IMG/VR virus record: IMGVR_UViG_2645727821_000016
Length of the DNA: 22,822 nucleotides
Reading direction: 5' to 3' (one strand)
Source: a virus
Taxonomy: Duplodnaviria; Heunggongvirae; Uroviricota; Caudoviricetes
A model generated the notes under the pieces. That model had not been told where the DNA came from, searched no databases, and saw only the letters and a program-made list of their open reading frames with translations. The stretch's first letter is position 1; every line of letters starts with the position of its first letter. Shown here in pieces: positions 9,482-12,425 of this stretch. The position numbers and the translations under genes were made by a program.

Positions 9482-9607
9482 CGAGATTAAAGTGCATTAG
9501 TTCAGATGCAAATTGACATTTTGTGGCACAGGGTAGAGCTAGCGTGGTTGTCCGCTTTGTGCCAATAGCGGACATTGCTGGCTCATGGTATGTTAGTTTA
9601 AGGAGGC

Positions 9608-9639
9608 AGGTTATGCTCTGTATTTCGCTGTGGTATAAT
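9608..9639 (+). promoter_or_regulatory. Candidate promoter with extended -10 (TGgTATAAT) for the AT-rich cassette
   Basis: tggtataat at 9631-9639 is a perfect TATAAT with an upstream TG; a weak -35-like TTATGC lies 17 bp upstream. If the ATG at 9613 is the true start, this element would be intragenic. Confidence 0.35.
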
Positions 9640-10635
9640 AGTTGCGCAATTGATACAAGGGAGCGTTACATCGTGAAAATTGTTTTCGAGGTTAATGGAA
9701 AGAAAGTTCCACTAAAATCTTTAAAATACATAAGCAAAAAAGATCAACTCGAAGTAATGAAAAACTGGTTCTTTGAAAACTTTGAAGATCCGGCAAATGC
9801 TTGTCCGTATGAAAGTAGAGAAGGTGGCTATGCTTACATATATGGCGGGCCGTATGATGCGAGCGAAGAACTACAATCCATCTTCGGTCAATATGTTAAA
9901 TCTGAGTATATTGAGGAATTAGTAGATGAATTACAAACACAATGTTTTGACTGGTCTGGAAACTCAAATAATATAGATGATTGGTACGATGATGATATCT
10001 ACGACGCTGTAACGTCTTCCGGTAATCCGTATTTAAAATTCATTGATAATATCGATAAAATAAAAAAACTTGCAAAAGATAAAACTGAACAACAGCAAAA
10101 AAACCACTTGCTTAGTTTGCTCTACACGAATGTTATTACAGCTTTGGAAACGCTTTATGTTGAGCTATTCATTAATTCTATAGAGAAAGATGATGTCTAC
10201 ATAGCCAATTGTATAGAAAAAGGTAAGACTGAATTTAAAGTAAGCAAAGATATTGCTGCGTTGCCTTTCAAGGGTGAACCCATCGAGAAAATTAGGGGAG
10301 AGCTAATCAGGTCAATCAAGGAACACTTGATCAGTGCAAGCTGGCATAGCACTAAAAAGGTAATCGACCGCTATGAAGCTACATTCGATATAAAAGTACA
10401 AAAAGACTGTCCGATAGAAGCTATTGAATTGGCAACCCTCAATCGAAATCACTTAGTGCATCGTGGTGGAAAGGATAAAGAAGGGAACCTCGTAGTGATT
10501 ACAGACCAGGATCTTGAAACGCTGATTGAAAATGCATCGAACCTGGCAATTATGCTCTACAACAGTTTAAATGTAGCAACGAATAAAACCACCATTTTGC
10601 AACCAGATGACAAACCGTTCATTCATGAATTTTAA
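9613..10635 (+). CDS. AT-rich cassette gene A: hypothetical protein with no assignable function (candidate defence/abortive-infection component)
   Basis: Long ORF with strongly AT-biased codon usage, unlike its neighbours. Start is ambiguous: ATG 9613 with AGGAGG 6 nt upstream, or GTG 9673 with AAGGGAG 9 nt upstream, or the track's 9523. A single R-x4-H (RNHLVH) lies near the C-terminus. Confidence 0.7.
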   Translation: MLCISLWYNSCAIDTRERYIVKIVFEVNGKKVPLKSLKYISKKDQLEVMKNWFFENFEDPANACPYESREGGYAYIYGGPYDASEELQSIFGQYVKSEYIEELVDELQTQCFDWSGNSNNIDDWYDDDIYDAVTSSGNPYLKFIDNIDKIKKLAKDKTEQQQKNHLLSLLYTNVITALETLYVELFINSIEKDDVYIANCIEKGKTEFKVSKDIAALPFKGEPIEKIRGELIRSIKEHLISASWHSTKKVIDRYEATFDIKVQKDCPIEAIELATLNRNHLVHRGGKDKEGNLVVITDQDLETLIENASNLAIMLYNSLNVATNKTTILQPDDKPFIHEF

Positions 10636-10650
10636 TAGCGCAGGTCATAC

Positions 10651-11652
10651 ATGGATATTCGCACACGAAAGACAAAATTTTTAGAGTCGTTAGATTCAAC
10701 TGAAGTGATACGCAAAGCAGTAAGTCTCGCTATAGATTGCATTATTGATAATCATAATAGTAATGAAGATACCCCCTTAGTTATTACCAGCTATGATGAT
10801 CTCTGTAGAATCCAGGTGCTAAATTATGTACAGGAGTTTTGCGAAGCTGCATTCCCTGATATGGATGAATATTACTTTAGTCCTAACATACTTCGCATCA
10901 ACGGCAAGACTAGTGAAGAAGCTTGTATTAACTTAATTAAACTCTTAAGAAGTACAAAAGGCATGCTATTCTGGTCCGATGCCCCATCGTGGTTCGCTAG
11001 CCTCCCCGACGGATTATTCCATGTTGTTAACATTGATCAAAAAATCGTTACTCGCGGCCTTAATAAGAAAAACTCTAAGCCGACAATAATCAATAAAGAT
11101 TACAGTGTAGATACACTACTATCAGAGCTATTTTTGAATGGCGCACACATGGAGCAACCCAACGTACACAACGTTTCTGAGGGAAACATGAAGTTCTATG
11201 ATGAATGCCATGCTGGATTAATCAGACCAATACCCGCTCCAATAGGCGCGTCATACGATGAAGAGATCACAATTAATTCTCCAGATTGGCAAAAGCTCGC
11301 GTGTGTAGCTTTACGCCGCTATCAGTCGAAGGAATGTCATGACGGAATGCAATGGGATACAACCGATCATGGTTGGACTGATGTAATCGCGTATCCATTC
11401 GTCGAAGAAATACAATCAATGGATAATAGTGGTTATCGACAATGTTTAGTTGGGCTGGTCACAATAAACAATTCAAATGCAAATTCTCCGTACCTATCTA
11501 CCGTTTGGATACATCCATTTTATCGCAGGAGAGGGTTATTAAGTAAGTTATGGCCAAAATTACAAGAGTTATATGGAAGTAACTTCGAAATTGAGCGACC
11601 TAATGAAAATATGAAAGCATTTCTGAAAAGTGCGAAACACGCAGATTACTAA
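10651..11652 (+). CDS. AT-rich cassette gene B: hypothetical protein with C-terminal GNAT-like (acetyltransferase motif A-like) segment
   Basis: 333-aa ORF, 15 bp downstream of gene A, on the same strand with the same AT-rich composition. The C-terminus reads ...CLVGLVTINNSN...YLSTVWIHPFYRRRGLLSKLWPKL, resembling the GNAT beta4-alpha3 acetyl-CoA-binding loop. Confidence 0.8.
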   Translation: MDIRTRKTKFLESLDSTEVIRKAVSLAIDCIIDNHNSNEDTPLVITSYDDLCRIQVLNYVQEFCEAAFPDMDEYYFSPNILRINGKTSEEACINLIKLLRSTKGMLFWSDAPSWFASLPDGLFHVVNIDQKIVTRGLNKKNSKPTIINKDYSVDTLLSELFLNGAHMEQPNVHNVSEGNMKFYDECHAGLIRPIPAPIGASYDEEITINSPDWQKLACVALRRYQSKECHDGMQWDTTDHGWTDVIAYPFVEEIQSMDNSGYRQCLVGLVTINNSNANSPYLSTVWIHPFYRRRGLLSKLWPKLQELYGSNFEIERPNENMKAFLKSAKHADY

Positions 11653-12059
11653 TTTATGAATCAGTCTGTGGAGTTAGGGTTGGTGTCAACAAGTAGGGTA
11701 AGAGCCTCAACGTGATGCTATGCCGACCTGCTCCCTGAGAATTCACACAGAAGGCTGCTAGCAATGTCTGCAGATCGCTCAAAGCGGACTAGAAGGTTAG
11801 CTTGCGTCGGACTTGGCGTATTTAAAGAAGTGCTGGTGGTGACTGGTTGTTGTGTTCCATTTCTACAGAACAAAATCACAGAAACTATACCCAATAGTTA
11901 TATTGAATCAATGATGAGACAGCCTCATATTTATCAGAACTGGTGTACGTCCAATACAGGAGGTTGTCGTGCTGGTTCTCAAATGTGCGCTAGCTATTGC
12001 GGCTGTAATGGCAATTTATTGTCTTGCTGTTGTTCTTATGGATCGCCTTTCTGATTGAT

Positions 12060-12269
12060 TTTATATTGGCGAGGTGACGGGAGTTAAGTAGAATTGCTGC
12101 GGGTGCTTGAGGCTATCTGCCTCAGGCATGAACACCAAAGGCAGATAGAGAAAAGCCCCAGTTAATATTACGCGTCCTGCAAGACGCTTAACATTAATCT
12201 GAGGCTCAATCTATGAACGGCAAATCTAGGTTAGCCTCTTACGTGCCGAAAGGCAAGGAGAAGCAGGCT
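12060..12269 (+). promoter_or_regulatory. hok mRNA leader region (probable location of antisense Sok-type RNA and an upstream overlapping frame)
   Basis: Structured leader upstream of hok: hairpin tgagg-ctatctg-cctca and a complementary aaaggcagatagag segment. The 5' segment gaggtgacggg (12071-12081) is partly complementary to the hairpin flank ccctcgccacctc (12447-12459) downstream of hok, fbi/tac-like. An in-frame upstream start at 12213 extends the frame to 70 codons. Confidence 0.35.
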
Positions 12270-12425
12270 ATGAAGCAGCAAAAGGCGATGTTAATCGCCC
12301 TGATCGTCATCTGTTTAACCGTCATAGTGACGGCACTGGTAACGAGGAAAGACCTCTGCGAGGTACGAATCCGAACCGGCCAGACGGAGGTCGCTGTCTT
12401 CACAGTTTACGAACCTGAGGAGTAA
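12270..12425 (+). CDS. hok: Hok/Gef-family type I toxin (HokD/RelF-like), 51 aa
   Basis: ATG at 12270 with AAGGAG at 12255-12260. The product MKQQKAMLIALIVICLTVIVTALVTRKDLCEVRIRTGQTEVAVFTVYEPEE has the single transmembrane helix and conserved Cys/Glu tail of Hok-family toxins. Confidence 0.85.
   Translation: MKQQKAMLIALIVICLTVIVTALVTRKDLCEVRIRTGQTEVAVFTVYEPEE

Follow-up and report, generated by a model that had tools for sequence, protein, structure and literature searches.

A two-gene, AT-rich cassette on the prophage

The window analysed here, a 22,822-nt stretch of viral DNA assigned to the Caudoviricetes (IMG/VR record IMGVR_UViG_2645727821_000016), carries a cassette of two genes on the + strand, gene A (9673..10635; 320 amino acids, aa) and gene B (10651..11652; 333 aa). 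We identified the cassette as DS-33, which DeWeirdt et al. published under the working name 'GNAT' in their 'DefensePredictor' study (Science 2026; PMC13092281), where it consists of WP_014639476.1 and WP_000354965.1 from an ECOR strain. Gene A is identical to DS-33A (WP_014639476.1) at 320/320 residues, and gene B (WP_000354966.1) matches the tested DS-33B (WP_000354965.1) at 332/333, with P289L as the sole difference. Gene order and spacing are alike in the two loci, with B directly downstream of A on one strand; the tested clone has L289 in B, whereas the window has the common P289 allele. An earlier note, made from the letters of this DNA alone, had proposed the cassette as an undescribed anti-phage system. 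The locus is a real defence locus, correctly spotted from raw sequence, but it is already known, and since DS-33 was published in 2026 no discovery is made here.

The open reading frames (ORFs) underlying the two genes (9523..10635 and 10651..11652) run in the same direction, on the + strand, and 15 nt separate the stop codon of the first from the ATG of the second, as the note had described. Gene A probably begins at the GTG at 9673, which is also the RefSeq start and lies 8 nt downstream of a ribosome-binding site, AGGGAG (9659..9664, + strand). The extended -10 element placed by the note at the 5' boundary, TGGTATAAT (9631..9639, + strand), is present and is the sole TGNTATAAT in the 22.8-kb window with both strands counted. 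We predict from the sequence that it is the likely cassette promoter; it is absent from the output of a simple -35/-10 scan because its -35 is poor. The element is retained as TGGTACAAT or TGATACAAT in Erwinia, Aeromonas and A-deleted copies, and it still lies upstream of gene B in two copies from which gene A has been deleted (loci L100 and L101). A terminator scan revealed no convincing terminator 3' of gene B, and folding of the RNA of the 3' flank (11640-11810) gave no structure beyond shuffled controls (z 0.32).

The AT-rich block reported from inspection of the letters corresponds to a clear step in composition. Guanine-plus-cytosine (GC) content in 400-nt windows is 0.48-0.575 at 7.2-9.6 kb, falls to 0.345-0.43 at about 9.4-12.2 kb and then returns to 0.54-0.56. 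GC content is 0.384 in the cassette interior (9583-11756), with 0.361 in gene A and 0.391 in gene B, versus 0.490 for the remainder of the window. Equal-sized windows elsewhere in the 22.8 kb have a mean of 0.488, a standard deviation of 0.024 and a lowest value of 0.432, so the cassette lies about 4 standard deviations below the mean. The low-GC tract extends slightly beyond gene B, to about 12.2 kb.

A repeat search revealed an imperfect inverted repeat with one 46-nt arm on each side of the cassette; the left arm (9537..9582) is 74% complementary to the right arm (11757..11802). The left arm contains an internal hairpin, GTCCGC-N12-GCGGAC, and its core is common to Erwinia, plasmid and A-deleted copies. 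It also occurs, with 5-6 mismatches in 30 nt, beside different cargo in LF82 and two other prophages. The right arm follows gene B in IncF plasmid, Erwinia and IMG/VR copies, and homology to LF82 starts again at 11763. Judged by this pattern, the repeats may be a cargo-exchange site or the boundary of a mobile cassette.

Domain architecture and published phenotypes of DS-33

Gene A encodes a HEPN-fold defence effector with two domains, and its AlphaFold2 model (predicted local distance difference test, pLDDT, 88.5) shows a HEPN helical bundle. The N-terminal domain (residues ~26-92; 9748..9948, + strand) is of the HEPN/RES-NTD1 type, as indicated by homologues and by a weak match to Pfam PF18870 (HEPN_RES_NTD1; E 2e-4, 22.1 bits, under the gathering cut-off of 27.4). 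Many homologues of gene A carry a precomputed PF18870 match, and the domain contains the conserved motif WF..N.EDP...PY.S.EGGY.YI.GGPY. The HEPN domain proper spans residues ~140-308 (10090..10596, + strand). Within it lies the lone Rx4H that the note had picked out, R258-N-H-L-V-H263 (RNHLVH; codons at 10444..10461, + strand), of which R258 and H263 are invariant in 46 homologues. Pfam PF18735 (HEPN_RiboL-PSP) did not match gene A at E up to 1 and is carried by ~30 of its homologues. The DefensePredictor authors' HHblits search linked DS-33A to the RiboL-PSP-HEPN protein PD-T4-2_B with a probability of 96.1 over 55% of the protein (PMC13092281).

DS-33 scored as defensive, and replicated, in the supplementary tables of the DefensePredictor study (PMC13092281); full-text literature searches with accession numbers and domain words did not retrieve it, and we found it only in those tables. 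The assay values (Table S7; plaque assays, log10 protection, two replicates) were obtained with a low-copy clone that, by its description, has the native promoter. The wild type gave 3.8/2.6 against T7, 3.3/2.4 against T3, 4.0/2.0 against Bas67, 5.0/5.9 against Bas26 and 0.8/0.1 against T5, that is, 2-6 logs of protection against the first four phages. Protection against all five phages was about 0 when the HEPN gene was deleted and at most 0.8 for R258A. The strain with the GNAT gene deleted gave 4.8/4.3 against T7, 3.3/3.3 against T3, 4.0/3.3 against Bas67, 5.0/4.9 against Bas26 and 1.7/0.5 against T5. Thus, loss of the HEPN gene or the R258A substitution ends defence and loss of the GNAT gene leaves it (PMC13092281). 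As Bas67 is a Berlinvirus (Autographiviridae) and Bas26 an Epseptimavirus (Demerecviridae), the range of DS-33 comprises T7-like phages and one T5 relative.

These assays, made on an identical gene A, bear out the anti-phage role that had been suggested. They show, in work done partly by others, that protection against T7, T3, Bas67 and Bas26 needs gene A, which suffices without gene B, and that R258 is required and gene B is not. The DefensePredictor log-odds, 9.45 for A and a low 1.08 for B, are also those of the published study (PMC13092281).

Against T7, T3, Bas67 and T5, protection was 0-1.7 log higher once the GNAT gene had been deleted (PMC13092281). This slight increase hints at mild damping by gene B; expression effects or assay noise could also explain it. 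It would further agree with an obligate pair resembling a toxin-antitoxin (TA) system of the type VII kind, in which gene B would acetylate the HEPN toxin or its target and phage infection would lift the block, and the tight operon with its 15-nt gap would also fit. We consider such a pair improbable. The strain without the GNAT gene is viable and defends (PMC13092281), the tested B already carried P289L at an invariant residue, and no antitoxin of the MNT or RHH type is present.

The AlphaFold2 model of gene B (pLDDT 89.8) has a GNAT fold. The protein consists of an N-terminal alpha/beta domain (residues 1-190; 10651..11220, + strand), which is family-specific, and a GNAT-fold domain (residues ~205-333; 11263..11649, + strand). 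Searches with the N-terminal domain returned 20 matches in 1.84 billion representatives, all in its own family of ~330-aa proteins, and none of those representatives had the domain in another architecture; it has no Pfam, PADLOC or NCBIfam match. A Foldseek search of the model against the PDB retrieved acetyltransferases only, with low TM-scores, and was uninformative for the N-terminal domain. The nearest relatives of the GNAT core are protein lysine or N-terminal acetyltransferases. Pfam Acetyltransf_1 scored 19.9 bits, under its cut-off of 20.7. Near the C-terminus the protein reads W-I-H-P-F-Y-R-R-R-G, and the GNAT-like motif claimed for the end of gene B is therefore present. Motif A (Q/R-x-x-G-x-G/A) takes the form R-R-R-G-L-L, in which R292 is invariant; conservation does not extend to the G or the final G/A. 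Point mutants in this RRRG loop would probably leave defence against the phages tested so far intact.

Neither protein, then, is as unrecognisable as the note had supposed: gene A has a HEPN architecture catalogued in 2013 and gene B has a GNAT fold. PADLOC, NCBIfam and PHROGs give a functional name to neither gene; PHROGs contains both families (phrog_17908 and phrog_16994), each as 'unknown function'. Profile searches of both families against PDB sequences returned nothing meaningful.

Residue P289 of gene B (codon CCA, 11515..11517, + strand), in the motif-A region of the GNAT domain, is L in the published test allele. It is invariant in 42/42 aligned family members. All cassette-bearing complete genomes of E. 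coli (209/209) match the window's 63-nt stretch around codon 289 at >=99%, and as this band excludes even one mismatch for a 63-nt query, the stretch is unchanged in the 209 genomes. The DS-33B tested in the 2026 paper therefore has L289, and the window, the 42 family members and the 209 E. coli genomes have P289. Because the substitution falls at an invariant position, the published GNAT deletion may not inform on functional B, and the atypical allele behind that result is a caveat for any DS-33 follow-up. With P289, an active gene B may control or adjust the HEPN nuclease, or it may widen or redirect protection by acetylating a protein of the phage or the host. We regard it as rather unlikely that the native P289 gene B is an active acyltransferase altering DS-33, or that the 46-nt repeats define a swappable cassette of ~2.25 kb.

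Genomic setting and distribution

At the RefSeq locus, which is 99.97% identical over 3 kb, the gene order is a replisome-organiser-like gene, a DUF977 gene, A, B, hokD, DUF968, rusA and an antiterminator. The window matches a Rac/Qin-like lambdoid prophage beside ompW in E. coli of the extraintestinal pathogenic type, such as UTI89, IHE3034 and the type strain. Among 5426 complete genomes of E. coli, 1322 matched the queried stretch, and nearly all of these matches were confined to the 3' end of the DUF977 gene upstream; only 209 of the 5426 contain the cassette, with an intact pair in 205. The slot between DUF977 and hokD (9482-12269 in the window) holds variable cargo at other loci (L002, L117-L121). 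This cargo includes an FRG-domain gene; a DUF262 gene with an AAA ATPase and a third, hypothetical gene; a SMEK-domain gene with a SAM methyltransferase; a 505-aa hypothetical gene with a restriction endonuclease; and various unnamed genes.

Such varied cargo between the same DUF977 and hokD genes indicates that the proposed accessory hotspot is real. The earlier note had placed accessory cargo after the replication genes and before hok, and this position does hold different defence-like cargo in other prophages; its horizontally acquired module proves to be a mobile accessory cassette in a truly variable prophage slot. A SMEK-domain protein has been validated as DS-27 (PMC13092281). The slot in Rac/Qin-like prophages is thus a rich cargo hotspot that could be mined further, as its kinds of cargo have already been validated as DS-33 and DS-27.

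Two features lie on the 3' side of the cassette. The hokD type I toxin gene (12270-12425) has an in-frame upstream mok-like extension (12213-12425), and the low-GC tract reaches about there. The spacer between cassette and hokD contains a 96-aa cysteine-rich ORF (11764-12054, + strand) that is conserved in E. coli copies and unannotated in RefSeq; this ORF overlaps the right repeat arm and is probably no real gene.

We identified the intact pair, its genes separated by 15-18 nt, in E. coli prophages, Erwinia, an IMG/VR contig, plasmids and an Aeromonas island. Amino-acid identities are 96% (A) and 92% (B) for the IMG/VR contig, 93% and 89% for Erwinia sp. ErVv1, and 87% and 78% for the Aeromonas chromosomal island, where the pair lies beside Thoeris genes. 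The neighbours in Aeromonas (L103-L106; 5001-6971, 8093-10963) are a TIR-domain gene and a Thoeris-like pair, formed by a ThsA-like SIR2-STALD gene and a TIR gene resembling ThsB; one Aeromonas strain has integron and resistance genes next to the A-B pair. The pair also occurs on IncF and other plasmids of E. coli, Klebsiella variicola and Citrobacter, and a Providencia plasmid carries a copy with gene A frameshifted. On the K. variicola IncFIA/IncFIC plasmid NZ_CP114364.1 (L115, 5034-7013), the proteins are identical to the E. coli pair and the DNA is essentially 100% identical, so the cassette spreads on plasmids too. On this conjugative resistance plasmid, relB and IS26 flank the pair, and qnrS1 is a few kb away.

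The company that the cassette keeps, namely hokD in the prophage and relB, pemIK and partition genes around the plasmid copies, would suit an addiction or stabilisation module of the prophage or plasmid, with defence as a side effect of plasmid expression. We consider this very unlikely. Defence reaches 5-6 logs, was replicated, is phage-specific and R258-dependent, and was seen with a low-copy clone reported to have the native promoter (PMC13092281); moreover, gene A is readily lost in nature, which argues against addiction.

Such losses have occurred in at least six independent ways, with gene B, or its GNAT half, left intact. Among them are two distinct internal deletions in which the promoter is retained (L100, 5817-5924; L101, 5878-5944), a 5' truncation in Citrobacter/Enterobacter elements (L107-L110, about 4790), and an IS1-mediated deletion in E. 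coli AHB12 and the frameshifts on the Providencia plasmid (L114, 4001, and L116, 3300-4300). The remaining one is a deletion that fuses a DnaC-like gene to B residues 133-333 (L102, 5644-6606; protein P0148). P0148, found on 9 contigs, joins the first ~120 residues of a DnaC-like helicase loader in frame with that part of B, and appears to be a deletion product without gene A and most of the B N-terminal domain. The reverse case was found once, in E. coli SF-173 (L112), in which IS1 interrupts gene B at ~codon 187 and gene A is intact. The bias of ~6:1 towards loss of A (one-sided binomial p ~0.06) is influenced by how the loci were sampled and is suggestive only.

Distant relatives separate the two genes entirely. 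Full-length relatives of gene A (24-76% identity, many phyla) occur in 41 loci without gene B, and gene B relatives of 39-62% identity stand alone on an integrative and conjugative element, beside Mu-like phage genes and in a Shewanella mobile region. A recurrent partner was found neither for gene A in the 41 loci nor for gene B where it stands alone. In close relatives, those in which A is at least 87% identical, every A is followed by B wherever the contig continues. The pair recurs in several elements and genera; more distant relatives are never paired. As the published GNAT deletion keeps defence, and genomes show each gene without the other, the two genes are not the obligate two-gene system that had been envisaged.

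The distribution also bears on the TA-like pair described above. Joint movement of A and B between E. coli, Erwinia, Aeromonas and plasmids would suit it, and repeated loss of A with B intact is what would be expected if A were costly; against it stand the SF-173 strain, with B interrupted and A intact, and the 41 loci in which relatives of A have neither B nor another conserved partner.

Alternatively, A and B may be two independent cargo genes on one promoter, with A a solo HEPN defence and B a separate accessory gene with its own target, active in defence against other phages, counter-defence or host-protein modification. We regard this as possible but doubtful. It is favoured by the solo B relatives, which share no neighbour, by retention of the promoter region directly upstream of B in the two A-deleted copies (L100, L101), by the affinity of the GNAT core to protein lysine or N-terminal acetyltransferases, and by the E. 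coli counts, in which B is kept at >=80% coverage in 209/209 cassette-bearing genomes and A in 205. However, B has no known phenotype and a far lower DefensePredictor score than A (PMC13092281), and it invariably follows A among the close relatives. The alternative also overlaps our preferred explanation rather than excluding it. Taken together, the losses and solo occurrences point to a gene A that is self-sufficient and probably costly, and to a gene B that is separable.

Proposed function and comparison with known systems

We conclude that the cassette is, with high probability, the published DS-33, carried as cargo in the DUF977/hokD slot of a Rac/Qin-like lambdoid prophage, with A as the sensor-effector and B as an accessory. 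DS-33A would be a self-contained protein in which the C-terminal HEPN domain probably dimerises to form a composite Rx4H ribonuclease site. The N-terminal HEPN/RES-NTD1 domain may keep the protein inactive, or sense a phage cue, until infection. Once activated, DS-33A would cut RNA (tRNA, rRNA or mRNA) and stop translation, thereby blocking phage growth, probably by abortive infection. Ribonuclease action is predicted from the genetic need for R258. Gene B would be a GNAT-fold acyltransferase that became linked to A in a single Enterobacterales/Aeromonas lineage and shares its transcript; it may slightly damp A at most, or have a separate function.

Several points weigh against this interpretation. 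The ribonuclease activity of DS-33A, its RNA target, its trigger and the abortive-infection phenotype are all still proposals. DS-33 is absent from the main-text discussion of the DefensePredictor paper, which gives phenotypes only and no mechanism, and the assays used a plasmid clone in MG1655, not a native lysogen (PMC13092281). The dispensability of the GNAT gene was established with the P289L allele, so the 'wild-type' construct may have contained a B that was inactive from the outset. Finally, the PADLOC 2023 models recognise neither protein, so the placement of DS-33A in a known HEPN defence family relies only on fold and remote homology. DS-33A represents a validated single-protein HEPN defence.

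Among known systems, the GNAT-RHH toxins (TacT, AtaT, ItaT) are single-domain proteins of ~175 aa with an RHH/DUF1778 antitoxin. Gene B resembles them in its GNAT fold and its occurrence on mobile elements, and is unlike them in its unique N-terminal domain and its persistence alone. We rejected a type II TA system of this kind (TacAT/AtaRT), as gene B has 333 aa and two domains and no RHH/DUF1778 neighbour in any context. The type VII TA system HepT/MntA was rejected as well, as neither gene B nor its neighbours gave an NTP_transf_2/MNT match. HepT/MntA has an MNT nucleotidyltransferase partner, whereas the partner in DS-33 is a dispensable GNAT-fold protein (PMC13092281), and gene A carries a further domain at its N-terminus.

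PD-T4-2 (Vassallo et al. 2022), which consists of DUF262 and RiboL-PSP-HEPN proteins, comes, like DS-33, from E. coli accessory regions, but it acts on T4 and DS-33 on T7-like phages and Bas26. We rejected this identity too: there was no PADLOC PD-T4-2 match at E up to 1, and the cassette has no DUF262 gene. The abortive-infection protein HepS of the Salmonella Gifsy-1 prophage (PMC13043305) is similar to DS-33A in that a single HEPN protein with an essential Rx4-6H motif suffices for defence, without an inhibitory partner, and in that both are accessory cargo of a lambdoid prophage, placed directly behind its replication genes. Gene A is not itself a HepS, which is defined as a standalone HEPN protein of <250 aa homologous to STM14_3211.

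The two-domain layout of gene A is that of the HEPN/RES-NTD1-HEPN architecture (the MAE_28990/MAE_18760 group, e.g. KPK_1764) described by Anantharaman et al. 2013 (PMC3710099), in which an N-terminal domain of ~100 aa, also found fused to RES toxins, precedes an Rx4-6H HEPN domain. That work is a computational catalogue without phenotype, and gene A of the window scores under the curated PF18870 cut-off. As this N-terminal domain is common to DS-33A and RES toxins, DS-33A could serve as a model for how one adaptor domain controls different effectors.

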